Source of the DNA: Cytophagales bacterium
GTDB lineage: Bacteria; Bacteroidota; Bacteroidia; Cytophagales; JAHDFW01
Length of the DNA: 64,000 bases
Reading direction: 5' to 3'
Assembly (NCBI GenBank): GCA_965277185.1
Contig: CBDICC010000044.1
Span: 175,360-239,359 of the forward strand
Below, in pieces: positions 4,253 to 64,000 of this stretch. Under the pieces are notes generated by a model. It did not search any database. It saw nothing but the letters and a program-made list of their open reading frames with translations, and was not told where the DNA came from. Within the stretch, counting starts at the first letter, position 1; each line of letters opens with the position of its first letter. Position numbers and translations under genes: made by a program.

Positions 4253-4303
4253 TCTTTTTAATTAGCGTTCTTTTTGGATAGAAGTAGATCAAACTATCTT
4301 ATA

Positions 4304-4675
4304 CTAAATGTGCTGATCAATTAGGATAGGGTTTCCATCTGGATCAATTAAGGTAATATGAGCCGGCCCCGCAGTTGATTCATCCGCTTCTTGGGTAAGT
4401 TCAACACCTTGCTCTTTCAATGACTTCTGTATGGAACGGACATCGGTAAATTCGTCCAGTTTTTGTGCCTTTGCATCCCATCCGGGGTTGAATGTCATTA
4501 AATTTTTATCGAACATTCCTTGAAAGAGCCCTATGCTAGTACTATCATTGCGCATGATTAGCCATTTTTGAGCAAGATCTCCTCCGACCGGAGTGAATCC
4601 TAGTTTTTCATAAAATGCTTTTGACGCATTGATGTCTTTTACTGAAAGGCTAACAGAGAATGTGCCTAATTTCAT
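4304..4675 (-). CDS. VOC/glyoxalase family protein
   Basis: SLSVKDINASKAFYEKLGF and DPDGNPILIDQH motifs. Confidence 0.9.
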   Translation of the reverse strand: MKLGTFSVSLSVKDINASKAFYEKLGFTPVGGDLAQKWLIMRNDSTSIGLFQGMFDKNLMTFNPGWDAKAQKLDEFTDVRSIQKSLKEQGVELTQEADESTAGPAHITLIDPDGNPILIDQHI

Positions 4676-47740: not shown

Positions 47741-48640
47741 TTAAAAGGACTTTAAATCTGTTGAATAAAACGTCCAGGAAGGAGTTTGAATTGGAATGTC
47801 GCTGTTGCCTGCTTCCAAAGTGTACCATGGACTTCTCAACGGTTCTTCAGGATTGGTTAGTATGTGAAATTCTTGAGCGGGCATATAGCTTTGAGCCAAC
47901 ATGTATAATTTTTGTCCGGATTTTTCATCTACTGCCATATCAATGATTAACATGGCGTGACCTGGACTTCCGCCTTGTATTAATACATCTCCAATTTGCA
48001 TTGCTTCCAAAGGCTTTGATTTTAGTTCTTTCGATAGAGAAAGTGTACCCGCATACATGAAAATTTGTTCTAAGTATTTCCATAGAATGTCAGGAGTGTT
48101 TGCTGGGGATGCGCGAAGTTTCCATGTAGTTTTATTACCAGAAACACTGATTCGTTTACCTTTCATCCATTCGGAATAGTCCACACGCATTCCATTCGTG
48201 AAATTGAAGTGGATTTCATCATATCTTTTTTGGGAATACAGGTAATCCGCACGCACACGCATTACGGCATCGGCACATTGATGTAAATCCTTAGTACCAA
48301 TAGGGAGGTCAAACACTCCTAGGTGGTAACCTCCATCAATTTCGTCTCCATCATATGTACGAATGGGAGCACCATATTTTTTAAGTGGAATTGAAGCAAG
48401 ATAAGTTGAAAACGAATTAGCAGGCTTAGCTACTCTAGTAAATCCAGCAGGCGTTCTAAAACGTTCTGTAAGTGTGTTACCATCTGGGAACAAGATGCTT
48501 TTAGCTTTAACAGTGTCTTGTGCTGCAATCACCGGTTCATCAGGTTTGGTGACTTGGGCTTTGGTACATGAAAATTGGAAAAGAATTAAACCCGATATTA
48601 TTAATCCTGATAATCGACGTGATGAAAATGGAATAGACAT
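47741..48640 (-). CDS. DUF4846 family protein
   Basis: DLHQCADAVMRVRADY, YAGTLSL, GGSPGHA and LAQSYMPAQ motifs. Signal peptide with possible lipobox QFS|C. Confidence 0.82.
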   Translation of the reverse strand: MSIPFSSRRLSGLIISGLILFQFSCTKAQVTKPDEPVIAAQDTVKAKSILFPDGNTLTERFRTPAGFTRVAKPANSFSTYLASIPLKKYGAPIRTYDGDEIDGGYHLGVFDLPIGTKDLHQCADAVMRVRADYLYSQKRYDEIHFNFTNGMRVDYSEWMKGKRISVSGNKTTWKLRASPANTPDILWKYLEQIFMYAGTLSLSKELKSKPLEAMQIGDVLIQGGSPGHAMLIIDMAVDEKSGQKLYMLAQSYMPAQEFHILTNPEEPLRSPWYTLEAGNSDIPIQTPSWTFYSTDLKSF

Positions 48641-48829
48641 ATATTGATTTTTCTGAAGTTTGTACTTATATAATGAGGCAGAATCTATTTGTTACACAAA
48701 TAACCTATTACAAATGAGCATATATTATTCCAAAGTTGAAGATGCTATTTATTATTTGGCAAGAATGAATTAATAAACGCTTACGAATCAGAACTATTCG
48801 TAAATCACTAAACCTGAAATCTGGTAAAC

Positions 48830-48866
48830 AAAAAAGGCGATCAACATGGATTGTTGATCGCCTTTT
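48830..48866 (-). terminator. Intrinsic terminator after the antiporter gene
   Basis: aaaaaaggcgatcaaca-N5-tgttgatcgcctttt. Confidence 0.85.
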
Positions 48867-48888
48867 AGCTAAATAAACTAGCTATGGA

Positions 48889-50547
48889 TTATTTTAATAC
48901 AACGAAGAATAAAACCCAAACAATAAGTAAGACAGGAAGTAAAATCGGAATAGAGTATTTCACAACATAAGTCATAAACGCAGGCATTTTAACTCCTGTT
49001 TGTTCCGCAATAGATTTCACCATGAAGTTAGGTGCATTTCCAATATAAGTCATAGCACCAAAGAATACTGCAGAAACAGATATCGCCATTAATTCCCAAT
49101 GGGTATCGGCTCCTTCCACGTATTTCATTACGTTCGTAGGGGTCATTTCAGTCATACCTGCTTTACCCATACCTGCAGATAAGAAGTTCATGTAAGTAGG
49201 AGCATTATCCAATACTCCAGATAACGAACCTGTAAACCAGTAAAGAGAATTAACACCAATCATTTCACTACCTTCTGGTGTTCGAGCAAACGAACCTACC
49301 AATTGCAATGCAGGCATCATGGTGGCAAAGATTCCAATAAAGATAAATGCGACCTCCTTGACGGGTTCAAAATCAAATTCATTTCCTTTGAGACATTCCT
49401 TGTCCGCTGTTTTATATGCTAATATGGCGACGGTAAACATGATAAGCTCTCTTATAACACTAAATTTGGTAGCGGTTAAATTTTGTGCTGCAGTTAAGTT
49501 GTCTGTGATACCAAGTAAAACTTCTCCATTTTCTAACTGAATTATACCAGGTAGCCATCCCATTTTGTTTGGATCAAGAAAAACGGCTGCAATTACAACT
49601 GCCAACCAAATAATGTTTCGAGCTCCTTTTAGAGAAATTTTGCCGCTATATTTAATTTGCTCATCTGGTCCATCATAATCTGCTTTATTACGACGATCTA
49701 TGAAGTAGAAGATTGCTGCTAATAAACCAATTCCTACTATCCACTCAAGCCATACATGCGTTAACGTCCAGAAGAATGGAACACCCTTCAAAAAACCAAG
49801 AAATAAAGGTGGATCACCAATAGGAGTTAAACAACCACCTACGTTACTCACCATAAAGATGAAGAAAACAATATGATAAGGCTTAACGCGATTTTCATTA
49901 AGTCGAATGAAAGGACGAATCAAAAGCATGGAAGCTCCAGTGGTACCAATAACATTTGCAATTAATGCACCCACTACCAATAATGCTACATTTAAAAGTG
50001 GCTTACCTTCTCTGTCAATTTTAATTAAGATTCCTCCTGATGCAATAAATAAGGAAGCAATCAACGCTATAAAGGAGACATACTCCGCTAATGCATGCAC
50101 AGGATGATGAGCATCACCTAAAACAAACACATAGTACACAACTACTATTGAACCAAGAACAATAGCTACTAATGGATAGAATTTGTGCCAAAAATGCTCA
50201 AAAAACAAAGGACCAGTAGCTATCATCAATAATAATAGTACAAAAGGAATAATGGACCATAAAGCAGGATCATGATGTGCATCATCGTGCCCACCTCCAT
50301 GTTCTGTTCCGGCCTCAGCAGATGTCGCTGTATGACCTTCTGATTCTTCGCCACTATCTGTATTACCTACAGCGTCGGATTCAGACGGATTTTCGTCTCC
50401 ATTGTCAACCACATTGGAATCACTTTCATCCGCTGCTAACTCAATTCCATCTTCATTTGAATCTTCTTCTTGCGAAAATGCCGGGCTAAAGGCAAACATT
50501 GCTAACCCTAAAAAGATTAATAGATATTTCCTCATCATAGTACTCAT
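48889..50547 (-). CDS. Ion transporter (IT) superfamily sodium:proton antiporter-like protein
   Basis: GTTGASMLLIRP, SNVGGCLTPIGDPPLFLG, LDNAPTY and GAMTYIGNAPNFMVK motifs, with many transmembrane helices. Confidence 0.85.
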   Translation of the reverse strand: MSTMMRKYLLIFLGLAMFAFSPAFSQEEDSNEDGIELAADESDSNVVDNGDENPSESDAVGNTDSGEESEGHTATSAEAGTEHGGGHDDAHHDPALWSIIPFVLLLLMIATGPLFFEHFWHKFYPLVAIVLGSIVVVYYVFVLGDAHHPVHALAEYVSFIALIASLFIASGGILIKIDREGKPLLNVALLVVGALIANVIGTTGASMLLIRPFIRLNENRVKPYHIVFFIFMVSNVGGCLTPIGDPPLFLGFLKGVPFFWTLTHVWLEWIVGIGLLAAIFYFIDRRNKADYDGPDEQIKYSGKISLKGARNIIWLAVVIAAVFLDPNKMGWLPGIIQLENGEVLLGITDNLTAAQNLTATKFSVIRELIMFTVAILAYKTADKECLKGNEFDFEPVKEVAFIFIGIFATMMPALQLVGSFARTPEGSEMIGVNSLYWFTGSLSGVLDNAPTYMNFLSAGMGKAGMTEMTPTNVMKYVEGADTHWELMAISVSAVFFGAMTYIGNAPNFMVKSIAEQTGVKMPAFMTYVVKYSIPILLPVLLIVWVLFFVVLK

Positions 50548-50649
50548 TCTTAATGATAATTTACACTAAACAACATTTATAAAAATAAACTTAAAGAAAC
50601 CACACTTTGCCAACCTTAATGAAGAGGGGCGTAATTCTTCAAGTTCTGA

Positions 50650-50657
50650 CAAATGTA
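50650..50657 (-). promoter_or_regulatory. -7 promoter element of the antiporter gene
   Basis: TACATTTG on the minus strand, about 100 nt upstream of the start. Confidence 0.5.
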
Positions 50658-51289
50658 ATAGTTTTTAGAAAAGTAGGAAGACAAACGTGATATATTTTGG
50701 ATATAAATGGACTTATATAGACTTCTTAAGTTTGACTAGTAGCAATCTTTCAGACGGCAAACCGTATTGGATAAATTAGATTATTTTGGTTGAATTAATG
50801 AGGATTTACGTGTTAAAAATGGGATGGATGGATTAGGCTAGGGCAGATGGTTGTTCAATTGTGGAAGTAATAAAATGAAAAATACGAAAGATATGGTATT
50901 GTATGGGAGAAATGAACAATGTTTAATAAGGAATGTTTCATTAGAATCTTTATAGGGGATATTTCAAGTACTGATTTGGGTACTAAAATATGGAAAAAGG
51001 GAATTCTTCTTCACATACAAGAACAATATAATGTCCTTTTTACCTTAGGTCGTAAATCGGGAATAGACTAGTTGGAAAAGTAGTGGGTTACCTTTTAACC
51101 ACAATCAGTATGTATAATACATTTTGTATGGGATTTGTATAAGTTAACTTTTAAGTTCTGATTAAGGGAATCTTGAAAAATCATTAGAAAAATGCTAAAA
51201 AATATTGAAAAAAGCATATTTTTAGAAAAAAGGACTTGAAATCTTTGTTAATACTTTATAATTCATATTTATTGCGAAACACTTTTAAA

Positions 51290-51631
51290 ATGAAAAAAAT
51301 GGACCTGGCAAGAAAATTATCAATCGGATTTGTATTGTTATTGTGTGGCTTCTTCGCGAAAGCACAATCTTCTACAACACAATTAAGCTCCGAAGAATCC
51401 AATAATTCAGAGGTAGGTATGACTGAAACCACAACCAATGCATCTAACAGTGTTAGTGAATTGGGATTGGGGCAGGATGTTGATGTCTATACGGATTCAC
51501 CTACTAAGTTAGGTAAAGTATTTATTAATACAAATACCCTACGAAGTCAGAGAAATACTTACATGCCTCCGGTAGAAGCGCCTGTGAGCTCCAAGTCCAA
51601 AAAAGTTTTAACCAAAACTTCCGGAAACTAA
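51290..51631 (+). CDS. Small secreted Ser/Thr-rich hypothetical protein (cassette copy 1)
   Basis: 113 aa from the ATG at 51290. Signal peptide ending AKA|QS. Homologous to 62055-62438. Confidence 0.8.
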   Translation: MKKMDLARKLSIGFVLLLCGFFAKAQSSTTQLSSEESNNSEVGMTETTTNASNSVSELGLGQDVDVYTDSPTKLGKVFINTNTLRSQRNTYMPPVEAPVSSKSKKVLTKTSGN

Positions 51632-51646
51632 AATTAAACTTTTGAC

Positions 51647-51721
51647 AGCATCAATTTAAGATGCTTCTGTTTGAACCAATGTAGCTAAGCACTATGTGCA
51701 TAGTTTAGTTATTGGTTTCAA
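51647..51721 (+). other. Two intergenic stem-loops between the small gene and the protease gene
   Basis: agcatc-N7-gatgct (51647-51665), then a long imperfect hairpin ttgaaccaat...ctat-gtgc-atag...attggtttcaa (51671-51721). Confidence 0.6.
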
Positions 51722-51743
51722 TAATAAAGAACTTTAAAAAGAT

Positions 51744-54700
51744 ATGAATCATAAATACGTAAGTACCATGAGGTTATTAAAATTTTTATTGATGGGGTTT
51801 GTTTTCCTGTCCGCATCTATAGTCACGCAAGCTCAAAGTTGTATGATGACACCTCTTTCTTTAAATGAAAGGGTTAATAGCTCTGATCTTATAGTGGAGG
51901 GTAAGATATTAGGTCAAAAAGCATTTTGGAATCATGATAACAGCAAGATTTATACTGTTAACAAGATTGAAGTGTATAAGGTGTTTAAAGGAACTTTGAT
52001 GCAAAACGTGGTAAGTGTTTTGACTGAGGGTGGAATTGTAGGAAACAAAATGATGACGGCAAGACCTTCATTAGGTTTGGTTACTGGAGAAGTGGGAATG
52101 TTCACGTTGAAAATGAGCGGTACTACACTGACTAATTACGATCCTAACTTTATCGACGCAAACAGCAATTTGATTGGAACGAATGGTAACAGAGCAAACG
52201 TAGCGGCTAATTCAGTAAATGAGACTTTGTTTCTGCCTGTTGGAGCAGCACAAGGTTACATCAACTACGATCGTTATAAGCAAAAAGCTGTTGGTGTATT
52301 TGATAGTTATACAGATGTTGTAAATGATCTTTATATTGGAGTCAATAATATTACAAATAGAGGTTTCCTTGAAATTAAGCCTTTCGTTGCGAATGATTTT
52401 ATTAAACAAACAAATAACGGTTCTAGAGCAACAGTAGTTGTTACTAGTATTACAAACCCAGCAACGGCTACCAATTCAGCTTCTGCGGGTACTTATACTG
52501 AAATTGAAATTGTAGGTTCTGGATTTGGTACGTCCGTTGGACAACTTCGTTTTCCGAATGCGGATGATGGAGGAGCAACTACTATTAATTGTCCTGTTGG
52601 TTTGATCCTTTCTTGGACAGATACTCAAATTGACGTTTTGGTTCCAAGTGGGGCTTCTACTGGAAGTGTTGAAGTTCGAAATGCGACAACGGGATCTGGT
52701 ACAGGAACACTGATTGTACCTTACAATGTTTCAAACCTTGGAAGTAGTGGTGTTGAAAATGCGGCAGATATGATTAATACCAACGCTGTAGGAGGATATA
52801 CTTGGACATATAGTACTAATTTTTATTCTAATCCGGATGCTGTGGCTCGATTTGGAGAGTCGCTTTGTGAATGGACTGGTGCTACAGGGATTAATTGGGA
52901 TACAGCATCTACAACTTCAACGGTAGCTTGTGAAGCTTCTGGAGATGGTGTAAATATTGTTGCTTTTGATAACAGTTGTGGACTTAGTAGTGGGGTTTTA
53001 GGAACATGTTATTCTTACTATTCCGGATGTTATGGAGCGAGCGGTTTATCATGGTATGTAAGTGAATTAGATATTAAGTTTGATGCAAGTCAAAATTGGA
53101 ACTTTACCGCTGGAGCTCCAGCGTTTGCTGAATACGATTTTAAAAGTGTAGCAATGCACGAAGTGGGACATGGTCATCAGCTAGGTCACTTTGCACTTAG
53201 TTCAGATATCATGTACTGGTCTTTGACTAATGGTGCTCAAAATACAACGATTGATGCAAACGCTGCAAATGGTGGATTGTTCGTAATGGATCGTAATGGA
53301 ACTACAGCGGGGAATGCAGCATTTGATGCTGAAATTGCACATGTTGGTCATTCTGGAGGTAGCTTTGCAGCAAACGAGTGTGGTCCAGGAAGAATGATCC
53401 CTTATACTTGTACAGTAGGACCTAGCTGTTTTGATGGAATTCAAAATCAGGATGAGACGGCAATTGATTGTGGTGGGGCTAGTTGTCAAACTTGTGCAAC
53501 TAAATGTTCAAATGGAATTCAAGATGGATCTGAAACAGGAATTGATTGTGGAGGACCATGTACAGCTTGTTGTACTCCTCCTGCAAATGATTCAATTCAA
53601 TTTGCAGTAGTTGGAGCAGTATGCGGTGTAACAGTAAATAATGTAGATAACTCATGTTCTACAAATGATCCTGATTATGCAATTGGTTGCGTAAGTGGGG
53701 AAAACATGATGTGGTATTCAATTGATTTAGGTGCATTAGAAGATGGATTTGACTTAACAGTTAGTAACTCATCTACGGGAGCAAATTTTGAAATTGTAAT
53801 AATTGGTAATTATCCGAATGCACCTGCAGCATATGGTGTAGATTGTGGAGCAGTAGGGACGTATTCTTATTCTGGATTGCCACAAGATTCAGTGTATTAC
53901 ATTGGAATTGGAACTACCAATTCTGAAGTAGGTACGTTTGATTTATGTGTAACTGCAACGGGAAGTGCGTGTGTAGGTGGTGCACCAGCAAACGATGAAA
54001 TTTGTAACGCAGTTGCTTTGACAATGAATGCATGTCAAACAATTTTACAAACTGATTCTTGTGCTACGGCAGATTATACGGATGGAGCTTGTATTGAAGC
54101 TGGTTCTATGTCAGTATGGTATTCATTTAGATTAAGCAACCCTAACAATCAGGTAGAAATTTATTTTGATACAAATACGTTCCTTGGAGGATCAGTAGGA
54201 ATGATGGTGTTGGATAGTGCATGTTTAAGTCCATTGTTTGAGTGGTCTGATTGTGGAAATGCAAATTCAGATACATTCAGATTAACAAACTTAGAATATG
54301 ATTCTACTTATTATTTAATGGTTTCAAACCCTCAAGGTTCTCAGGGTGACTTTAAATTATGTATTAATGAGTCATTTGATCCTTGTGTTGCAGCACCTGC
54401 TGCGAATGATAGTATTTGTAATGCTTCTTTCGTTGCATTTGGTGTAGGAGGACAAACGTGTTTGACAAATCAAACAAACAATTGTTCATTCCCTGATTAC
54501 AGTATTGGATGTATTGATGCAAATACAAATACGGTTTGGTATGAATTTGATTTGGATAGTACAAATTCTGAAATAGAAATTACGTTTGATAATATCACAA
54601 CTACGGATGATACCTTGAGAGTAGGAATTATTGAAGCAATTGATTGTGATACATTATCTGCATGGGTTTATAACAGTTGTATAAGAGCAACAACAGATAC

Positions 54701-57086
54701 TATTACGCTTTCTCAATTAGACAGTACTGCAAGATATTTTATTCTAATTGGAACAGATATTGGAAGTGAAGGTAATTGGGATATGTGTCTTACACAGTCG
54801 ATTGATCCTTGCTTTAGTGCAGGAGCGCCGGCGAATGACTCTATTTGTGCTGCAACAATTATCCCAGTTGATAGTACTTGTTTAACAGGTCAATCAAATG
54901 AATGTGCAAATCGATCAGAAGTGTTTGGAGGATGTTTCAGTGCAGCAAATAGTACGATTTGGTATCGATTTACAATGTCAAATGCAACTGCAAATCAAAT
55001 GGATGTTTTTATTAACAACCATACGTTTGATGGCGATGTGAGCGCTATTGTAATGGGAGTGCCTGCTGGTACACCTTGTGCCCAGGTTAGTACAATTGGA
55101 CTAAATTATGGAACGGTTTGTCAGCATCCTGATAGTGGAGCCTTTACGTTTGATCAGTTATCTGATACGATTGACTATTATCTAGGTATTGGATCTCCAT
55201 CTACCGATGAAGGTACATTTGAAATTTGTTTACAAGAAGGTACTAAGCCTCCTGGAACAATTGTAGGTCCAGAACAGGATTGTTCTGGTGCGATTTCGCT
55301 TTGTTCAAGTAGTTGGACACAAACTGAATCATATATTGGAGCTGGAATCCAAGAATTGGTTGATGGAACGACTTGTATTGGAACAGAAGAAACAAATTCA
55401 TTATGGTTCGTATTCACGGTTCAATCCACAGATTCATTCGGATTTAATATTGTTACGGCAAATGATTATGATTTTGCGCTTTATAATATCTCTATTGACG
55501 GATGTGCAGGAATTCCTGGTCAAGTTCCAGATCGATGTAACTGGTGTTACGAACCAGGGAATACTGGATTAGATGAAACTACTTGGGATCCAACATTTGG
55601 ATTAAGTGAGCCAGGATCGAATCCATGTAATAAAATCATGGATGGTTTATGGGTAAATGCAGGTGAGACTTATGCATTGATGATTGATAACTATACAGCG
55701 GATAACGAAGGATTCACAATTGACTTTGAAGGAGCTTCGATTTACGATACAATTCCTCCACAACTTTGGAGTGCAGGACCTGATTGTGGAAACAACGCAT
55801 TTATCATAACAACTGATGAGCCAATCCAATGTGCATCAATTGATTTGAGTGATTTTAATATCTTTAATCAGGATGATGGATTAGATTGGACAGCTCAGTT
55901 TGATACTGCCTATGGTATAGGTTGTACAGGAGCAACGGGGCAAACTACAAATACTATTATTTTGCAGCACAATGGAACAATTCCTTCTGGTAACTATCGA
56001 GTTTCGATTGCACCGGTTCCAGGACCAAATGCATTGTTAGCAGATAAATGTGATAATCTTATTACAGTAGGTGGTTATGTAGATTTGGAGTATGTAATAG
56101 CAAATTTGGCTGCAACAGCAGATAAGTATATTACATGTACAGCTGGAGATGCTGTGGTTATTACGGCGACTGGTCTTCCGATAGGAGAAGTTTACTTATT
56201 GAATCCAGTAGGAGCAGCAAATTCTTCAGGGGTATTTACAGTAAATCCAACAACAACAACAACTTATACAATTAGCTCAACATATGCAGGTTGTTTAATT
56301 ACTACGAACATTACAATTCAGGTAATTTCAGAATTCACCACAATTGTAGATCCTACCTATTCAAAGATTTGTAACGGTACTATTGATATCATTGCAACGT
56401 CTACTATAAATGGTAATCCATGTAAAAATTGTGTATTCAGTTGGGGAGCACCAATTGGAAGAACGTCTGGATATACTCAATATGATACTGCCAATGTAGG
56501 AGATGGAACATATACGGTTCAAGCATCTTCCCCACTTGGTTGCGATGCAACATTAGAAAATTTTGAAGTTGATTTAGCTACGGCTGGATCAGGTGGAGTT
56601 TGTGAAGTAATGTATGTAGCTGGAGACGGTGTAGGTGTAGGAGCAAATAGTGGTCTTACCAAAGACTCTCCAACAACTTTAGATTCAGCACTTGCAAGAG
56701 CAATTTGTACAAACACAGTAATCAAATGTGCGGTAGGTACATATAGCTACGATGAGTATTTGTCGGTTAATAGTTACATAACAATTGAAGGAGGGTTTGA
56801 TGCAAATTACCTTACCAAATCATCTAACATGACCGGAACGAATGGTACTCGATTTATCCGTTCTGCCACAACTGCGGATGACGGAACTGGAGCTGGAACT
56901 GAATACAGTATGTTTAAAGTGGTAAGTGGATCTGAAGCATTCAGATTCCAGGACATTCGAATTGTAATGCCTGATCATGTAGCTGGAGCAGAGAAAACAA
57001 ACAAAGCAATTAATATGGCTACCAATTGTGTCAACTATTTCATAGTAAGATGTGATATCGACGCAGGAAGTGGTTCTGACGAATAA
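51744..57086 (+). CDS. Large secreted multidomain metzincin (M10/matrixin-like) protease/adhesin with no T9SS CTD
   Basis: Signal peptide TQA|Q, prodomain, IPT/TIG domain, HEVGHGHQLGH with Met-turn DIMY, two CxxGIQxxxETxIDCGG repeats, four PAND repeats, Ig-like domains, then a beta-helix-like start. Ends RCDIDAGSGSDE. Confidence 0.88.
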   Translation: MNHKYVSTMRLLKFLLMGFVFLSASIVTQAQSCMMTPLSLNERVNSSDLIVEGKILGQKAFWNHDNSKIYTVNKIEVYKVFKGTLMQNVVSVLTEGGIVGNKMMTARPSLGLVTGEVGMFTLKMSGTTLTNYDPNFIDANSNLIGTNGNRANVAANSVNETLFLPVGAAQGYINYDRYKQKAVGVFDSYTDVVNDLYIGVNNITNRGFLEIKPFVANDFIKQTNNGSRATVVVTSITNPATATNSASAGTYTEIEIVGSGFGTSVGQLRFPNADDGGATTINCPVGLILSWTDTQIDVLVPSGASTGSVEVRNATTGSGTGTLIVPYNVSNLGSSGVENAADMINTNAVGGYTWTYSTNFYSNPDAVARFGESLCEWTGATGINWDTASTTSTVACEASGDGVNIVAFDNSCGLSSGVLGTCYSYYSGCYGASGLSWYVSELDIKFDASQNWNFTAGAPAFAEYDFKSVAMHEVGHGHQLGHFALSSDIMYWSLTNGAQNTTIDANAANGGLFVMDRNGTTAGNAAFDAEIAHVGHSGGSFAANECGPGRMIPYTCTVGPSCFDGIQNQDETAIDCGGASCQTCATKCSNGIQDGSETGIDCGGPCTACCTPPANDSIQFAVVGAVCGVTVNNVDNSCSTNDPDYAIGCVSGENMMWYSIDLGALEDGFDLTVSNSSTGANFEIVIIGNYPNAPAAYGVDCGAVGTYSYSGLPQDSVYYIGIGTTNSEVGTFDLCVTATGSACVGGAPANDEICNAVALTMNACQTILQTDSCATADYTDGACIEAGSMSVWYSFRLSNPNNQVEIYFDTNTFLGGSVGMMVLDSACLSPLFEWSDCGNANSDTFRLTNLEYDSTYYLMVSNPQGSQGDFKLCINESFDPCVAAPAANDSICNASFVAFGVGGQTCLTNQTNNCSFPDYSIGCIDANTNTVWYEFDLDSTNSEIEITFDNITTTDDTLRVGIIEAIDCDTLSAWVYNSCIRATTDTITLSQLDSTARYFILIGTDIGSEGNWDMCLTQSIDPCFSAGAPANDSICAATIIPVDSTCLTGQSNECANRSEVFGGCFSAANSTIWYRFTMSNATANQMDVFINNHTFDGDVSAIVMGVPAGTPCAQVSTIGLNYGTVCQHPDSGAFTFDQLSDTIDYYLGIGSPSTDEGTFEICLQEGTKPPGTIVGPEQDCSGAISLCSSSWTQTESYIGAGIQELVDGTTCIGTEETNSLWFVFTVQSTDSFGFNIVTANDYDFALYNISIDGCAGIPGQVPDRCNWCYEPGNTGLDETTWDPTFGLSEPGSNPCNKIMDGLWVNAGETYALMIDNYTADNEGFTIDFEGASIYDTIPPQLWSAGPDCGNNAFIITTDEPIQCASIDLSDFNIFNQDDGLDWTAQFDTAYGIGCTGATGQTTNTIILQHNGTIPSGNYRVSIAPVPGPNALLADKCDNLITVGGYVDLEYVIANLAATADKYITCTAGDAVVITATGLPIGEVYLLNPVGAANSSGVFTVNPTTTTTYTISSTYAGCLITTNITIQVISEFTTIVDPTYSKICNGTIDIIATSTINGNPCKNCVFSWGAPIGRTSGYTQYDTANVGDGTYTVQASSPLGCDATLENFEVDLATAGSGGVCEVMYVAGDGVGVGANSGLTKDSPTTLDSALARAICTNTVIKCAVGTYSYDEYLSVNSYITIEGGFDANYLTKSSNMTGTNGTRFIRSATTADDGTGAGTEYSMFKVVSGSEAFRFQDIRIVMPDHVAGAEKTNKAINMATNCVNYFIVRCDIDAGSGSDE

Positions 57087-57154
57087 TTATTAAATACAAG
57101 TTAGAACCAAAAAGACACAATTAAATTAAGTTTAAGAGAATTTAGATAGAAATT

Positions 57155-60100
57155 ATGAAGATGATAAGAACCTTTACCGCAATTTTTGTCAGTATCATTT
57201 TGATTGGTACGTTGAGTGCCCAAACGCAAATTTACTATACTGGGTTTGAAGTAGCTGAACCTACTTGGAGCGAAGTTGGTGCAGATAATGGGAGTAGCGT
57301 TGGTTCCGACTTTTGCGTAGGTGGAAATGCCTTCCAAACTCGAAGTACGGACTCAAGAGATATTAATTATCATATCGTTTCAGATGATGCTATTGCCTTT
57401 ACTGCTGGATTAGCTTATAAGGTAACTTTTAAATCACGAGATAATAATTTAGGTAGTAATGGAGGTATTGATAGAGTTGTAATGACTGGAACACCAACAT
57501 CAGCCGCAATGAATGCAGTTGCGGGAGGAGAACTACTTGCGAGCGGAGTACAAGTTACCCCAAGTGCATGTACGGATTACACCTTTATTTATCAGCCGAC
57601 TGTTTCAGCGTCCTATCACTTTGGTCTCTCTTGCTATATTAATTATTCTGGGCCAACAGGGGCTAGCCGTGGTATAATTATTGATGAGGTTGAAATTTTA
57701 GAGTATTCATGTGATTACGGTGGACCATTGGATAATGTGGTATCTTGTGATGCGGCTTTGTTGGATTTAACATCAAGATTTGGTACTCCATTTTATGAGT
57801 ATAACATTTCAACAGCGGTAACTGGTTTAGGAAATAATGTATGTAACGCTACGACGGATCCATATACCAAATTTACGGTGGTACCAACAGGTACAGATCT
57901 GTTTTTAACATTTGCTAATCCTGGTTCTGAACTTACTGGAGATTTGGAAATTCAATTATGGGATTTTGTTTATAGTCCAATGGGTGGAGGAACTTGTGGC
58001 CACGGTTATCCTTTGGGAGGTGGAGTAACACCGGTTATAGGTACAGATGCGTTTTGTGTATCTAATGCCTTGATGTCAGTAGCAGGAGGTACAACTATTC
58101 AGTTTACAGGCCTAACGCCGGGTACTACCAATTATGTAATAACGGTGAGTTCATCGGCAGGGGAGTTATCCGTAAATACTTCATTTGATATGTGTATAGG
58201 AGATGGAGCACCTTGTGCCGTTGGAGTCTGTGCTTCCGCGGTTGGAGATGCTTATGCTGTTTATGCGCCAGATGATGGATCACCTGATGTTTCTTGTAGT
58301 GAGCTTGCCGCAACTGGAGGAGCTTCAAGTGGAGTCGGTATGTTAGTTACGATGGATGCAGGAGCAACAGATGTAGGAGCCTCGGTAGCAATTACAGGAT
58401 ACGATGTAATTACATCAGATAACTTTTCTTGTACCACTACAGATATTGATTTAGTTGATTTTGGAGGAAATACTTGGGTAAATAATGGATTTACAACTGG
58501 AAATGCATTAACTAACAATACTATTACAATAGAATATGCTGCTGGTAATCTTGGCAGAAAGGACATCGTTACTTCAGGTAATGCATTTACGTATTGCGAT
58601 TTCTTGAATATGCAAGTAGATGCGGCTGCGGCAGGTCCGATATTAGGGTCAACGGACATTTGTCCAGATACAGCACAGTTTACAAGTTCGGATAACGGAA
58701 CACCTGGATATCAATTTCAATGGGTGGTAGCGAATCCTGTAGGAGGAACTTCATCTATTATTGATGATACCTTGGGAACTACGGGTATTGTATTTACAAA
58801 CAGTACTGTCAATACACTTCGATTCGTAGTTAAATTAGTAATTACATCTGAATGCTGTGGTCCTCTGGATACGGTATACTATAACACGGATGTGTTCGCA
58901 TTACCACCTGCACCAACAACTATTTCACCAGATACGAATTGTGTTGGTGGAGAAGATACAGTATACGTAAGTCCTTCTACGGCTGGATTTGGATATAATT
59001 GGTATAATGCAGCTTCAGCTGGAACATTGTATGAAGCAGGAGATAGTTCGTACATCGTTGATAGTACCCTTTTTGGTGATACGTGGTATTATGTAGAAGC
59101 AGTAGATGCAAATGGATGTGTAAGTGCAGATAGAGATTCAGTTTTACTTCATGGACTTTATTATACACCTATAATTCCAACTGTGGATACATGTATTACA
59201 GGATATGTGCCGGTTTGTGTAGATCCTGCAGTAGTAGGAGCTACTTACTGTTGGTATAAAAATGGAGCTCCAGATACATTGTTGCAAGCAGGTTTTTCAA
59301 CATGTTATGATGTTTTTGTGGATTCCGTGGGTACAAGTGTGACAGTTTATGCGACTGTAAAAGAAGGTACCTGTGATGAGTCAAATGTGGCAACAGGAAT
59401 TGTGAATGTTACTTCACCTGCTACATCACTGTACTTCAAAGATTTTACAGGAGATCATGATTGGTTTAACGGAGATAACTGGACGGATGCATCTGGAAGT
59501 GTAGTTTCTGTAGGTTGTATCCCAAGTTGCGCAACAAACGCATTTATCTGGGATGGTTCAATGTGTGAAATTCTTTTCTCTGGTAGCAATGTTCCCGCTT
59601 CTTGTAAGAATATTACAATTAGAGCCGGAGCAACCTTAAAATTTATGGAAACCAAATCGGAGTTAAACGTATGTGGAAACTGGGTAAACTTGGGAGCATT
59701 GGAAATGTTTGATGCAGCAGCAAATGATAGAGGGATTGTGAATTTTATTGGTTCGTTGACCGCGCAAAGAGTTCGTTTTAGATCAACAGGTACAGGTTCT
59801 TTCTTTAATATGAGAGTAGCAAATACATCTCCTGATCCACGTGTATATGTGCAAGGGGGAACTACAGATGACAATATTGTGGTTAGAGGTGAACTATGGT
59901 TAGATAATGGGTTATTGGATATGGATAATCAGCAGATCAATACAAAATATTGTGATATTCAAAACTCTGATCCAAATGCAATTCGATCTTACAGTGCTAA
60001 TAGTTATGTAGTAGGTAACTTGAGAAGAGATGTAAGTGATAATGTAACGGAATATGTATTCCCAGTTGGGAACTTCCCAGGAGGAACATATTACAATTCT

Positions 60101-61132
60101 TTCCAATTGCTGCAATTCCAGAACCCTACAGGAATGACAGCTAGTGGCATGACGGATTTGACAGTGAGATTTGACGCTGGTACAGCCGATGACACTCTTG
60201 GTATAACTGCCTTAGGAGTAGGCCTAGAAAATGTGTTAGGTAATGGATCTAATACAGGTACGCCTGGAGTATATAATTCAAGTACAGAAGATGGTATTTG
60301 GACAATGGAGCCAGATGCAGGTACGGCAAGCTATGATTTGGCATTGCAAGGAACTTATTATCAGGAACCTGATACGAACTTTATATCAATAGTGAAAAGA
60401 GATAAGAATCCATATGTAATTGGTACAGCAGTAAGTCCTCTTCCAACGGCTGGGATTCTGTGGGGATTCTTTGGTAGTATTGATGCACCTAGTGGATTAG
60501 GAATTCAAGGATCTTTAGCGGTGGCAGCAAGAACTGGATATAATGGGTTCTCCCAGGTTGCGATTGCTAACGGACCAATTTTACCTTTGGCTGTTGATTT
60601 GTTTGAATTTGATGTAATGGCAAGAAACCACATGGTCTATCTTGATTGGCAGACTAAAAGTGAGGATAATAACGATTACTTTATTGTTCAAAAAAGAAAG
60701 GATAATACAGAATGGGAAGATGTTGCTATTATAGAAGGAAAAGGAACTGTTTCTACGTTAAGCTATTACGACTATGTAGACAGCAAACCTTATAGCGGGG
60801 TGTCTTACTATAGATTGATGGTTGTAAACAAAAAAGGAGAAGGTTATCCTTCAAAAGTGAAAACAGTCATGATTGATAAAGACTTCGATGTGAGCTTGTT
60901 CCCAAATCCTGCAAAAGAGAATATTGCGATAAATATTGAATCTAAAAGTGAAAGTAACATCCGAATTAACGTTTATAACTCTCTTGGAAAAATGGTTTAT
61001 AGTGATTATGTAACTATGAAAGAAGGTGCGAACAAGTATGATATGCAGTTAAATAATTTTGCTACCGGTGTGTATCATTTACAATTGAAGAATGATAACA
61101 TTACACATAACGTGAGCTTCATTAAACAATAA
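57155..61132 (+). CDS. Large secreted multidomain protein with T9SS type A CTD
   Basis: Signal peptide LSA|Q. Jelly-roll-like N-terminus, Ig-like and G8-like (DWFNGDNW) domains, an LPLAVDLFEF...WQTKSE module and FPNPAK...ATGVYHL...FIKQ. Confidence 0.88.
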   Translation: MKMIRTFTAIFVSIILIGTLSAQTQIYYTGFEVAEPTWSEVGADNGSSVGSDFCVGGNAFQTRSTDSRDINYHIVSDDAIAFTAGLAYKVTFKSRDNNLGSNGGIDRVVMTGTPTSAAMNAVAGGELLASGVQVTPSACTDYTFIYQPTVSASYHFGLSCYINYSGPTGASRGIIIDEVEILEYSCDYGGPLDNVVSCDAALLDLTSRFGTPFYEYNISTAVTGLGNNVCNATTDPYTKFTVVPTGTDLFLTFANPGSELTGDLEIQLWDFVYSPMGGGTCGHGYPLGGGVTPVIGTDAFCVSNALMSVAGGTTIQFTGLTPGTTNYVITVSSSAGELSVNTSFDMCIGDGAPCAVGVCASAVGDAYAVYAPDDGSPDVSCSELAATGGASSGVGMLVTMDAGATDVGASVAITGYDVITSDNFSCTTTDIDLVDFGGNTWVNNGFTTGNALTNNTITIEYAAGNLGRKDIVTSGNAFTYCDFLNMQVDAAAAGPILGSTDICPDTAQFTSSDNGTPGYQFQWVVANPVGGTSSIIDDTLGTTGIVFTNSTVNTLRFVVKLVITSECCGPLDTVYYNTDVFALPPAPTTISPDTNCVGGEDTVYVSPSTAGFGYNWYNAASAGTLYEAGDSSYIVDSTLFGDTWYYVEAVDANGCVSADRDSVLLHGLYYTPIIPTVDTCITGYVPVCVDPAVVGATYCWYKNGAPDTLLQAGFSTCYDVFVDSVGTSVTVYATVKEGTCDESNVATGIVNVTSPATSLYFKDFTGDHDWFNGDNWTDASGSVVSVGCIPSCATNAFIWDGSMCEILFSGSNVPASCKNITIRAGATLKFMETKSELNVCGNWVNLGALEMFDAAANDRGIVNFIGSLTAQRVRFRSTGTGSFFNMRVANTSPDPRVYVQGGTTDDNIVVRGELWLDNGLLDMDNQQINTKYCDIQNSDPNAIRSYSANSYVVGNLRRDVSDNVTEYVFPVGNFPGGTYYNSFQLLQFQNPTGMTASGMTDLTVRFDAGTADDTLGITALGVGLENVLGNGSNTGTPGVYNSSTEDGIWTMEPDAGTASYDLALQGTYYQEPDTNFISIVKRDKNPYVIGTAVSPLPTAGILWGFFGSIDAPSGLGIQGSLAVAARTGYNGFSQVAIANGPILPLAVDLFEFDVMARNHMVYLDWQTKSEDNNDYFIVQKRKDNTEWEDVAIIEGKGTVSTLSYYDYVDSKPYSGVSYYRLMVVNKKGEGYPSKVKTVMIDKDFDVSLFPNPAKENIAINIESKSESNIRINVYNSLGKMVYSDYVTMKEGANKYDMQLNNFATGVYHLQLKNDNITHNVSFIKQ

Positions 61133-61198
61133 GTAAGAGACTTGTTAGAGTTGGGTTGATTTCTAAACGTCAATTCAAAAGTATAACGGTATAGATAT

Positions 61199-61236
61199 AA
61201 AAGAGGGTCTGCAATTATTGCAGACCCTCTTTTTTT
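61199..61236 (+). terminator. Intrinsic terminator closing cassette copy 1
   Basis: aaaagagggtctgcaa-tta-ttgcagaccctcttttttt. Confidence 0.9.
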
Positions 61237-61790
61237 GTTTAAGGCACATATCATATTGGATTAATAAGTCTAACATAGGACGTATAGTGTTGATAAAGCG
61301 AACCGGCGTTTTTTATCTAGAAGAAGGCCAGATGAAGTTCGTGAGTTCAATCCAATAGCATTCGTATAGTTGCCTATTTAAGGATTAAATTGTCATTTCT
61401 TAATTCCGTTGTAGATCAATTTTTAAAATAGAATAAAGAAACACTTAGAAATATTGTGAGCTCTATATTAAGGAGGAATACGATGTAATATCGTAATTAG
61501 TTTTTTTTAAAGAAGTTTACATGGTTCTTGAGATTAAGTTATATAAACGATACAAATGTGATGAAGGTTGTACTATGAAATAGGACAAGAGTTTACTTTT
61601 CTATTTAATAAATTAGGTGGGGAACGAGGCTGTCCTTATTAATATCTTATTTATTACGAACATATACTCTTTATCATTTTTTGTGGAAGGTTCATTCATG
61701 TCACGACATTTCATCATGCCAATGACATAGTTGGAATAAAGAATTCGACGAAAGTATAGGGTGTTTTATAAAATTAATGGAAAAATGATT

Positions 61791-61814
61791 CATAACTGTT
61801 ATGGTACTGTTATG
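61791..61814. promoter_or_regulatory. Putative regulator site: 9-bp direct repeat with 11-bp period, overlapping a palindrome
   Basis: actgttatg-gt-actgttatg (61795-61814) and cataac-t-gttatg (61791-61803). Confidence 0.4.
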
Positions 61815-62054
61815 TTTTTTTCGGTTGAATGAAAAAAATACTTAAGGTGCTTGGCACATTAACTGTGGCTATTTTGGGTAATGAGAGGGTGTTTTGGTTA
61901 TTGTATGGCTAAAGTATGGTGTGCTAGATTAGGGGTTTTTATTGTTTTTTGTAACATTGTAAATACGATTGCCGTTTAATCTGATTAGTTTAAATGGTAA
62001 GGGTATGATTTGATTTTGCACAGGTTGTGCATTTCTATAAATGAAAAGGGAAAT

Positions 62055-62438
62055 ATGTTTGGGATTTATAAATACACATTGTTGGCAATTACGCTTGCAA
62101 TTTTCTCCTCAGTGAGCTACGCTCAATCTGATGAAACAACAAATAGTTCGTTACGAACTCAAAAAGTAGAGAGTAATGAAAATGCTTCCTACGCTAATTC
62201 AGAAAATGATAATAAAGAAACAACTGCTCAATCAAAAGAAGTTGTATCGAATACTGTAACTGCAATAGAGATTGGAGATCAAGTGCAGGTTACGGCAAAC
62301 TCTTCTCAAAAAGGAATTCCAGCTCAAAATAATATAGAAGCCCAGAAAGGTAGAAAGGTATTATATGTAGCACCAGTTGGAGAACTCTATAAAGATGAAA
62401 CCAGAAATGGGACGCTGGAAAAATCAACTGGATATTAA
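62055..62438 (+). CDS. Small secreted Ser/Thr-rich hypothetical protein (cassette copy 2)
   Basis: 127 aa from the ATG at 62055. Signal peptide ending SYA|QS. Shares motifs with 51290-51631. Confidence 0.8.
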   Translation: MFGIYKYTLLAITLAIFSSVSYAQSDETTNSSLRTQKVESNENASYANSENDNKETTAQSKEVVSNTVTAIEIGDQVQVTANSSQKGIPAQNNIEAQKGRKVLYVAPVGELYKDETRNGTLEKSTGY

Positions 62439-62501
62439 AACTAAATAGAGCAGGAAAACGACACTCAGTTGTTATTTTAACTTTACTATACTTACGTTAA
62501 G

Positions 62502-64000
62502 ATGAAAAGATATTGTACTTGGGCAATAAGAAGGATGAATATTGCAGTATTAACTATAATACTGTTAAATGGGGTTTTGGTGGAAAGTGTTTCTGCTCAA
62601 AATTGCATGATGGTGCCTCAATCATTAAATAAGAGGGTGACAGAATCGGATTTGGTGGTAGAAGGAAAAATACTTGGCCAAAAAGCATTTTGGAATCATG
62701 ATGAAAGTAAAATTTATACCGTGAACAAGGTAGAGGTTTATAAGGTGTTCAAAGGAACATTGCTTCAAAATGTGATCAGTGTAGTAACCGAAGGTGGTGT
62801 GGTTGGAATGAAGATGATGAAGGTTAGCCCTTCATTGAGTTTAGTTCCAGGAGAAGTGGGAATGTTTTCATTGAATATGAGTGGGGTTTCGTTGAAACAA
62901 TATAATCCGAACTTTTTAAACAATGTTGGAAATTCAAACAACAAAATTCAAGTTGCTTCACCTAATGAAACACTATATACCAGTTATGGGTCTGCTCAAG
63001 GTTATATTAATTATGACAGATATTCGCAAAAAGCAGTTGGTGTATTTGATCAGTATGTAGATGTGGTAAATGATTTGTATATACAAATTAATAATATTAC
63101 CAATCGTGGATATGCTGATATCGTTGCATTTGATGCAACAGGTTTTATTAAACAAACGAATAACGGTTCTAGAGCGGTAGTAACTATTACAAGTATTACA
63201 AATCCAGTAACTGGAAACAATACGGCTTCCGCAGGAACATATACAGAAATTCAAATTGTAGGATCTGGATTTGGAACTGCAGTGGGGCAATTGAGATTTG
63301 CGAACGCTGATGATGGTGGAGCGACTACAATAAACTGTCCAGCAGGATTGATTCTTTCTTGGACGGATACTCAAATTGATGTTTTGGTTCCAAACGGAGC
63401 CACTACAGGAAATGTGGAAGTAAGAAATGCAACTACAGGTTCTAATACAGGAAGTTTAATTGTACCTTATAACGTTACGAATTTAGGTAGTAGTGGTGTT
63501 GAAAATGCTGCAGATATGGTAAATACTAATGCCGTTGGAGGATATACTTGGACATACAGTACTAACTTCTATTCCAATCCTCAAGCAGTTGCACGATTTG
63601 GAGAATCACTTTGTGAATGGACCAATGCAACCGGTATAAATTGGGATACAGCGTCTACGACTTCAACTGTTGCTTGTGAAGGGGGCGGTGATGGAGTAAA
63701 TATTGTAGCTTTCGATAATAGCTGTGGACTTCCAGGTGGAGTATTAGGAACTTGTTATTCATACTACTCAGGATGTTATTCTGGTGGAATTCTATCTTGG
63801 TATGTAAGCGATTTAGATATTAAATTTGATGCAGGGCAGAATTGGAATTTTTTGGCTGGTCCTCCTGCTTTTTCCGAATACGATTTCAAAAGTGTTGCAA
63901 TGCATGAGGTTGGACACGGACATCAATTAGGACATTTTGCTTTAAGCTCTGATATTATGTATTGGTCCCTTACAAATGGATTTCAAAATGTAACGATTGA
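62502..64000 (+). CDS. Paralogous metzincin protease, 3'-partial (not in the ORF track)
   Basis: Hand translation from the ATG at 62502 gives MKRYCTWAIRR...VSA|QNCMMVPQSLNKRVTESDLVVEGKILGQKAFWNHD. The motif AMHEVGHGHQLGHFALSSDIMYW (His codon 63903) is in the same frame. Colinear with 51744. Confidence 0.92.
   Translation, partial: MKRYCTWAIRRMNIAVLTIILLNGVLVESVSAQNCMMVPQSLNKRVTESDLVVEGKILGQKAFWNHDESKIYTVNKVEVYKVFKGTLLQNVISVVTEGGVVGMKMMKVSPSLSLVPGEVGMFSLNMSGVSLKQYNPNFLNNVGNSNNKIQVASPNETLYTSYGSAQGYINYDRYSQKAVGVFDQYVDVVNDLYIQINNITNRGYADIVAFDATGFIKQTNNGSRAVVTITSITNPVTGNNTASAGTYTEIQIVGSGFGTAVGQLRFANADDGGATTINCPAGLILSWTDTQIDVLVPNGATTGNVEVRNATTGSNTGSLIVPYNVTNLGSSGVENAADMVNTNAVGGYTWTYSTNFYSNPQAVARFGESLCEWTNATGINWDTASTTSTVACEGGGDGVNIVAFDNSCGLPGGVLGTCYSYYSGCYSGGILSWYVSDLDIKFDAGQNWNFLAGPPAFSEYDFKSVAMHEVGHGHQLGHFALSSDIMYWSLTNGFQNVTI

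Follow-up and report, generated by a model that had tools for sequence, protein, structure and literature searches.

The stretch analysed here (the window) is 64,000 nucleotides (nt) of the genome of a Cytophagales bacterium (G000; contig CBDICC010000044.1, abbreviated C44; positions 175360–239359), which we take to be a soil or water dweller. Its last part holds a cassette of three genes, S, A and B, followed by the start of a second copy, all of them on the plus strand according to the list of open reading frames (ORFs) and their translations (Table 1). S encodes a small secreted polar protein, A a giant M10 metzincin without a C-terminal sorting domain (CTD), and B a partner that carries the CTD of type IX secretion system (T9SS) cargo.

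Table 1 Features of the S–A–B cassette (positions are those of the window unless a contig is given; aa, amino acids; MMP, matrix metalloproteinase; TIMP, tissue inhibitor of metalloproteinases)
Feature	Position	Strand	Description
Leader 1	50548..51289		742 bp, AT-rich, intergenic, upstream of S1; GC 0.30–0.32
S1	51290..51631	+	113 aa counted from ATG; small secreted polar protein, signal-peptide-like N-terminus
A1	51744..57086	+	1780-aa M10 metzincin without CTD
A1 aa 31–235	51834..52448	+	N-terminal NTR/TIMP-fold domain
A1 IPT/TIG domain, aa 236–335	52449..52748	+	Pfam TIG match below cut-off, plus fold matches
A1 aa 336–560	52749..53423	+	MMP-like catalytic domain (PF00413, Foldseek, VIA-align)
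A1 aa 555–1170	53406..55253	+	Two Cys-rich motifs of ~30 aa, then four repeats of ~115 aa (read from the translation)
A1 aa 1171–1618	55254..56597	+	A module, first part: Cys-containing jelly-roll-like domain and Ig-like domains
A1 aa 1619–1780	56598..57083	+	Terminal half-beta-helix domain, C-terminus ...IVRCDIDAGSGSDE
B1	57155..61132	+	1325-aa partner; own signal peptide, type-A CTD
B1 aa 1248–1317	60896..61105	+	T9SS type-A C-terminal sorting domain (PF18962, TIGR04183)
Intrinsic-terminator-like hairpin ending copy 1	61199..61233	+	16 pairs, 7 of them G–C, then TTTGTTT
Leader 2	61234..62054		821 bp; GC 0.30–0.31; diverged from leader 1
S2	62055..62438	+	127-aa small secreted polar protein
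A2, 5′ part	62502..64000	+	Full gene C44:237861–243173, 1770 aa
B2	C44:243253–248238		Beyond the window; 1661 aa; own signal peptide, CTD

In copy 1, 112 nt separate S1 from A1 and 68 nt separate A1 from B1; the corresponding gaps in copy 2 are 63 nt and 79 nt. No strong terminator lies between S, A and B, and the sole strong one closes copy 1. The shortness of these gaps, together with the lone strong terminator, suggests that S, A and B form an operon. Read onward in the genome, A2 proved to end in ...VIDAGIGADE, at the same stop point as A1 (...DIDAGSGSDE) and likewise without a CTD, and B2 follows with a match to Por_Secre_tail of 46.8 bits. The layout of copy 1 given in the preliminary description of this DNA, from leader to terminator, is thus borne out by the ORFs, the Pfam and NCBIfam matches and the hairpin; so is its start of copy 2, with leader, small protein and second metzincin, and the continuation beyond the window answers its question of whether copy 2, too, lacks a CTD on A and has a CTD-bearing partner.

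A and B have a counterpart in single proteins. A word search with residues 1300–1780 of A1 led to P0009 (1,956 aa), in which residues 79–669 match A1 1175–1779 (44% identity, 3e-124), residues 844–974 match B1 358–481 and residues 1151–1956 match B1 479–1325 (32% identity, 4e-111). The order is kept, so that the last third of A and all of B are one chain there. A profile of the terminal domain of A, scored against 1.84 billion cluster representatives, gave 367 matches at E ≤ 1e-3 and 37 at E ≤ 1e-30. Among these 37 best matches, the protein ends exactly at the end of the profile in 22, and the domain lies at about residues 370–810 of proteins of 1,289–2,624 aa in the other 15. Six of the latter were read by eye, and in each the IDAGxG motif is followed by Gly-rich or other domains, then by the B core and a CTD-like tail. 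When metagenomes were scanned with the same terminal domain, eight loci emerged, at every one of which the ORF stops at ...RCYIDAGxGxxP. Wherever a locus has at least 1 kb of downstream sequence (8/8: two in G000, G001, L123, L124, L125, L126 and L129), the next large gene on the same strand has its own signal peptide. Por_Secre_tail was recognized in seven of these eight partners; that of L124 scores 25.4 bits against a cut-off of 27, and that of L126 ends at the end of its contig. Colinear halves within one protein, a start and signal peptide for each half and a recurring break point, which together mark a fission, are hence all present. These alignments show that A and B together correspond to a single large, modular T9SS protein, secreted or held at the surface, which many relatives make as one chain and which is cut here at a domain boundary.

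On the B side, the constant element is a core of ~850 aa (B1 residues ~478–1325) common to all partners and fused proteins, and the N-terminal parts vary between loci. The CTD of B1 is of type A, with matches to Por_Secre_tail (PF18962; 46.5 bits) and TIGR04183 (38.4 bits), and Por_Secre_tail scores 46–54 bits across B1, B2 and the B of the congener G001. A comparison of B1 residues 1–560 with proteins of 2,320–5,000 aa, in which fused giants would fall, found no match, although this is weak evidence. Joining of A and B by read-through or a frameshift was ruled out, given that B has its own signal peptide and that frames and gaps vary. The terminal domain of A is rare in species genomes: of 401 in the order it occurs in 3, and a sample of 401 from the phylum also has 3, G000 being one; the two other matches in the phylum lie inside ORFs of 1,869–3,888 aa. 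More distant relatives (P0082, P0091, P0121, P0127 and others; 850–1,840 aa) have the half-beta-helix right after the signal peptide, at residues ~20–170, so the family appears to have been cut and rejoined at several domain borders. One group of metagenome loci has small genes, devoid of signal peptides, around or between A and B (L124:2976–4198; L127:98–1301 and 3692–4516; L128; L130:1672–2082); some belong to DUF5618 (1.5e-29), and two form a retropepsin-like pair with a weak DUF1758 match.

The lack of a CTD in A is a departure from its own protease relatives. A search with an alignment of the first 620 aa of A found 187 confirmed relatives, of which 80 loci were kept. Four of these (L074, L089, L097 and L104) were dropped for want of a single frame spanning the match, and six of the remaining 76 were omitted from the CTD count, five because they run off the contig and one because it contains X. 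Por_Secre_tail is present in 68 of the 70 complete C-termini; judged by their tails, the two exceptions are the A of the congener and one dockerin-ended protein. Two paralogues in G000 itself (1,514 and 2,828 aa) end in CTD-like tails within one ORF (by eye). With homologues and same-genome paralogues tagged in this way, the loss of the CTD in A is derived. Neither A1, A2 nor the congener's A matches PF18962 or TIGR04183, by which a type-A CTD is recognized; CHU_C (PF13585), TIGR04131 and other NCBIfam models gave no match at E ≤ 0.01 in libraries that hold no model for type C (ChiA), and the last 100 aa of A1 and A2 have no Pfam match.

What stands at the C-terminus instead was modelled with AlphaFold2 (AF2) from residues 1460–1780 of A1 (pLDDT 73.8 overall, about 80–90 in the last domain). 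Residues 1619–1780 superpose on residues 1–154 of the 317 of pectin methylesterase (1xg2_A; Z 11.7, VIA-align) and would form the first half of a right-handed beta-helix; further matches are Pel9A (Z 10.4) and phage tail fibres, and the Ig-like domains of the A module have fold matches with Z 7–8. As modelled, therefore, the tail of A is not a hidden CTD, being a half beta-helix and not an Ig-like sandwich.

The whole unit has been doubled in tandem. Between the two copies, amino-acid identity is 70% for A, 51–54% for B and about 22–29% for S. The IPT and M10 parts of A1 and A2 are 86% and 85% identical as protein and only 77–78% identical as DNA, with 0.09–0.10 nonsynonymous substitutions per site (dN) and about 1.4–1.6 synonymous ones (dS), a value at which dS is saturated. 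Under the same saturation, dN/dS is about 0.06–0.2 in A and 0.14–0.28 in B. The congener has one S–A–B unit, flanked by homologues of the same genes, and a maximum-likelihood tree joins A1 and A2 as sisters (support 100/99) with the congener's A outside. The single copy in the congener and the sister grouping place the tandem duplication of the whole unit long ago in the G000 line. Such divergence and substitution ratios show the duplication to be old and under purifying selection, and both copies have stayed intact. The preliminary description had read this stretch as a three-gene unit repeated in tandem, with proteases whose IPT and catalytic parts are nearly identical as protein despite many synonymous changes (the peptides it quoted occur in A1 and A2) and with small proteins that are weakly alike, and on each of these points it stands. 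B2 differs from B1 by ~380 extra residues (about 1058–1437) between the conserved core and the last ~220 aa. The genome also contains a T9SS translocon gene: SprA, the component searched for, is represented by a match to SprA_N of 504 bits in a 2,445-aa ORF on contig C39. In the split-gene relationship and its conservation, the old duplication under purifying selection and the presence of the translocon gene we have high confidence.

At its front, A carries a peptidase. Peptidase_M10 (PF00413) matches A1 with 29.6 bits and A2 with 26.4 bits (cut-off 24). The zinc motif reads HEVGHGHQLGH, and H472, E473, H476 and H482, together with the Met-turn M490, are invariant among 77 aligned sequences; the canonical Gly at position 8 of HExxHxxGxxH is Gln in A. 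An AF2 model of A1 residues 31–560 based on the 77 sequences reached a pLDDT of 87.6 and a pTM of 0.90. Its catalytic domain has karilysin (4in9_A) as the best Foldseek match, with karilysin and MMPs at a probability of 1.00, and superposes on proMMP-2 with Z 12.8 and rmsd 3.3 over 156 aligned residues (VIA-align). Both marks of an M10 peptidase are therefore found, the zinc motif with its Met-turn and the profile and fold match to the catalytic domain. The preceding IPT domain, which the model places at residues 228–327, matches Pfam TIG with E 0.003, below the cut-off, and IPT domain folds with Z 8–11.5. The repeats in residues 555–1170 have internal and paralogous matches; searched domain by domain, neither NCBIfam nor Pfam assigns a family to these repeats, to the A module or to the B core. 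Split A halves at L125, L126 and L129 are 667–672 aa long and contain no protease, which makes the protease head an add-on to the A half in this lineage. Directly after the catalytic domain (53406–53603; A1 residues 555–620) stand two motifs of ~30 aa of the form C.DG..N.DET.IDCGG.C..C; an array of at least nine such Cys-rich units, 150 nt apart, occurs elsewhere in the genome in a 1,272-aa frame (G000:C23:3596–4966).

In front of the IPT domain lies a domain with the fold of a TIMP. Residues 33–207 of the A1 model superpose on N-TIMP-3 (3cki_B) with Z 10.0 and rmsd 2.9 over 117 of 121 residues (VIA-align), and agrin NtA (1jb3_A, Z 9.9), the NTR domain of PCOLCE (1uap, Z 8.8), TIMP-1 (1uea_B, Z 8.5) and complement C345C domains also superpose; the TIMP/NTR superpositions cover 110–117 of about 121–131 residues. 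Two sub-threshold Pfam NtA matches agree with this, and the domain as modelled appears to have an OB-type NTR fold. The OB fold held in common is, as a model-based likeness, evidence of neither homology nor inhibition. The hallmark of TIMPs, a mature Cys1 with a free amino group conserved in the family, is absent: Cys33 of A1 aligns with residue 1 of TIMP-3, but the predicted mature ends are Q-S-C in A1 and Q-N-C in A2, no Cys is conserved there among the 77 sequences, and the Gln at +1 is probably cyclised under the Q-rule of Bacteroidetes. That rule, as given in the accessible parts of PMC5837995 and PMC10653852, leads one to expect Gln at +1; the preliminary description rightly saw it after each predicted signal-peptide cleavage in all five proteins (by eye), although it is a Bacteroidota rule and not a feature of this locus. 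A was ruled out as a lipoprotein, having no lipobox and no conserved Cys after the signal peptide. In G004 (L034:7453–8031) and L123 (58–636), a gene of its own encodes the N-terminal domain as a 192-aa protein with a signal peptide and lies directly upstream of an IPT-protease gene; this second split in the protease family fits the role of an inhibitor or pro-domain. The literature searched (subscription journals and supplements lay outside its coverage) contained no report of a bacterial TIMP/NTR-like prodomain.

Given that the fused relatives read hold the A module and a CTD-like tail in one chain, and that the split form is both common and intact, A most probably still needs to leave the cell. 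We propose that A, which has a Sec signal peptide and no T9SS sorting domain and carries the TIMP-fold domain, the IPT domain, the MMP-like protease, the four repeats and the A module, would fold in the periplasm, as would B; that A would dock on B without a covalent bond; and that the CTD of B would take the pair through the SprA translocon and anchor it on the surface, with A as a hitch-hiker. The TIMP-fold domain may meanwhile keep the protease latent. Taken as a whole, a split S–A–B unit whose A is exported by way of B is our best explanation, and we give it an even chance of being right. Its particular steps, namely periplasmic folding, docking of A on B and export and anchoring through the CTD of B, we put somewhat below that. 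We are more tentative again about the general form of the proposal, in which the T9SS could export a hetero-complex, a CTD-less protein of up to 1,780 aa with an active protease head docking on the adjacent CTD-bearing partner, being carried through SprA and being held at the surface; this two-chain cargo design would be that of an entire family (the split type accounts for 22 of the 37 closest representatives), perhaps with a small disordered accessory and the latency-conferring TIMP-fold domain.

Several points weigh against this export of A on B. B varies in its N-terminal domains from one locus to another and so offers no conserved interface beside the break, and in a chain built like beads on a string contact between the two halves before the split was not a necessity. 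A secretin–ATPase–pseudopilin cluster in the genome is a possible other route, and the literature searched yielded no report of hetero-oligomer export, piggyback or hitch-hiking in the T9SS. A complex prediction for the tail of A (residues 1460–1780, 11-row alignment) with the core of B (residues 478–1130, 7 rows) returned scores of 0.00 and 0.00 and was used neither way.

The alternative that survives best takes the halves to have been independent ever since the split, A acting as a protease of the periplasm or the vesicle lumen or being released by lysis, B as an ordinary T9SS adhesin, and their adjacency as a relic. Modular proteins can split without earlier contacts between their domains, and the variable N-terminal parts of B and the two DUF5618 genes between A and B in L124 are what one would expect of such halves. 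We nevertheless think it unlikely: the six fused relatives read all continue from the A module into the B core and a CTD-like tail, IPT and repeat domains are, in our reading, typical of surface proteins, the pair is adjacent in 8/8 loci with enough downstream DNA and in three diverged copies in the genus, and the conservation profile places the last 20 residues of A among its best-conserved.

The small gene bears on a second alternative. An S-like ORF (99–139 aa, signal peptide, same strand, end less than 400 nt upstream) precedes A in 7 of 10 split-type loci with upstream sequence (twice in G000, and in G001, G004, L124, L126 and L129; absent from L125, L127 and L128). At 75 other protease loci there is no true S; the two that the script flagged are internal pieces of longer ORFs. 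S goes with the split A half and not with proteases, contrary to the preliminary description, which had linked the small gene to the latter. The S proteins are 66–78% polar past the signal peptide (S1 75% after residue 25) and have no motif common to all members, although the g1 and G004 members share Y-x-x-P. S1 and S2 do not find one another by tblastn at 1e-5, S1 has no Pfam or NCBIfam match, and its best score in the ESM Atlas is 0.89, to hypothetical clusters that give no lead. A sequence profile brings the family to five members among 5.8 billion clusters, the four sequences of the profile included, and none is named. The lipobox [LVI][ASTVI][GAS]C is missing: near the cleavage site, Cys is absent from S2 (which has none anywhere), the congener's S and the S of L126, S1 reads LLLC, and LGGC occurs in the S of L124 alone.

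These features can be set against those of potempins, which the accessible part of PMC9890683 describes as 118–152-residue precursors encoded directly upstream of, and co-transcribed with, the KLIKK peptidases of Tannerella forsythia, including MMP-like karilysin. S would on this alternative be a potempin-like inhibitor of the downstream protease; its position and size fit, and potempins, too, are very divergent from one another (4–14% identity in the same text). We regard this as less likely still than independent halves. The polarity, the missing lipobox and the lack of a common motif speak against it, as do gaps of 63–112 nt between S and A where potempins have at most 5 bp. S-like ORFs also precede protease-less A halves (L124, L126 and L129) and none of the 75 other protease loci, and the protease already has a TIMP-fold domain in cis. 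To judge from its sequence, S is a fast-evolving and probably disordered protein that would serve the split A half as an accessory, in the periplasm or after secretion; in this sense we infer, with the preliminary description, that S is an accessory and B a carrier.

A slightly poorer prospect again is that A leaves by another route, through an unrecognised sorting signal of its own or through a secretin system like the type II secretion system (T2SS) or type IV pili. The accessible text of PMC10202324 attests T9SS sorting domains beyond types A and B, such as type C in ChiA, and the secretin cluster (G000:C31:15000–30000) has a secretin match of 136.8 bits in a 657-aa ORF, with ATPase-like and prepilin-like ORFs and a possible prepilin peptidase among its neighbours, as judged by eye. 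Against a signal in A stands its C-terminal domain, which is internal in 15 of the 37 closest representatives and is a beta-helix, not a beta-sandwich; nothing ties the secretin cluster to the S–A–B locus. An artefact, whether from a frameshift or misassembly in what is really one gene or from a repeat that was collapsed or expanded, is extremely improbable, as B1, B2 and the congener's B each have their own signal peptide after 40–79 nt of non-coding DNA, the stop position is the same in independent assemblies and the copies, differing at 30% of DNA positions, are not confusable in assembly.

Around the genes, the leaders have no Rfam match at E ≤ 0.1 (50400–64000 scanned). The last ~250 bp of leader 1 (51040–51289) and the leader of the congener (L036:9300–9566) have conserved blocks in common just upstream of S, for example GGGTTACCTTTT and AAAAAAGGACTT, which are gone from leader 2; from their sequences, these blocks are candidate promoter or operator sites. 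A weak terminator-like hairpin of 6 pairs lies at 51647–51665, 16 nt past the stop of S1, and could attenuate read-through into A1. Upstream of the cassette and unrelated to it, the minus strand at 47741–50547 encodes a CitMHS_2 transporter (488 bits) as well as a protein with DUF4846 (318 bits); a homologue of the transporter adjoins the congener's cassette, too.

What defines T9SS cargo is that the exported chain itself bears a C-terminal sorting domain. If A is indeed carried by B, part of the T9SS secretome would escape genome surveys based on CTD counts, and two chains could make up one cargo; the fused relatives offer a natural control, which makes the export question directly testable. 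Should A remain periplasmic, the locus would amount to an ordinary case of a surface protein that has split and decayed. The MMP-like protease with an N-terminal TIMP-fold domain is in any case widespread in Bacteroidota, as its 187 confirmed relatives in the genome collection show, and it bears on the latency of bacterial MMP-like enzymes and on the history of the MMP/TIMP pairing. The value of the locus lies in these two testable ideas, export of an untagged half on a tagged partner and a TIMP-fold domain on bacterial MMP-like proteases. As to the functional link between A and B in the preliminary description, the natural fusion in P0009 and the CTD-less ends at all eight metagenome loci sustain it; the notion of a stand-alone new system is not sustained, the 37 closest representatives dividing into 22 split and 15 internal. 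Its remark that no described system has this layout holds in part: a small gene upstream of a T9SS MMP-like protease is known from the potempin/KLIKK operons, at least as the accessible part of PMC9890683 presents them, but S fails as a lipoprotein.

Among known systems, the KLIKK–potempin operons of T. forsythia share with the cassette, on the same partial text, an MMP-like M10 domain in a Bacteroidota T9SS setting and, directly upstream and in the same orientation, a small ORF (about 100–130 aa) that begins with a signal peptide. Karilysin, however, has its own CTD, which A has not, and potempins are lipobox lipoproteins with beta-barrel folds whose stop codon overlaps or lies within 5 bp of the protease start, whereas S is highly polar, stands farther upstream and tracks the split A half rather than a protease. 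To the TIMP/NTR module the likeness is one of fold, and the N-terminal domain of A adjoins an MMP-like catalytic domain; it differs in standing in cis at the N-terminus of the protease or, in G004 and L123, in a separate upstream gene. Two export systems are alike in principle. In twin-arginine translocation (Tat) of E. coli PaoABC, a signal-less subunit is exported bound to a signal-bearing one (accessible part of PMC4273604), and type-B CTD cargo depends on a PorP-like protein encoded next to it (accessible part of PMC9143113). Other machines and partners are at work in those cases, whereas for A and B we infer co-export, and B is itself cargo, unlike the PorP-like outer-membrane proteins. 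The same A module, B core and CTD-like tail, in the same order, are found in a family of single-chain T9SS cargo (P0009, P0027, P0028, P0031, P0036, P0038 and P0039; 1,811–2,217 aa), which is one polypeptide and, in the members read, has no protease head. Compared with that family, S–A–B has its break behind the half beta-helix, a signal peptide newly acquired by B and a protease head joined to A. S–A–B is thus best regarded not as a new kind of system but as a known kind of protein, T9SS cargo bearing an MMP-like head, in a version split over two chains.

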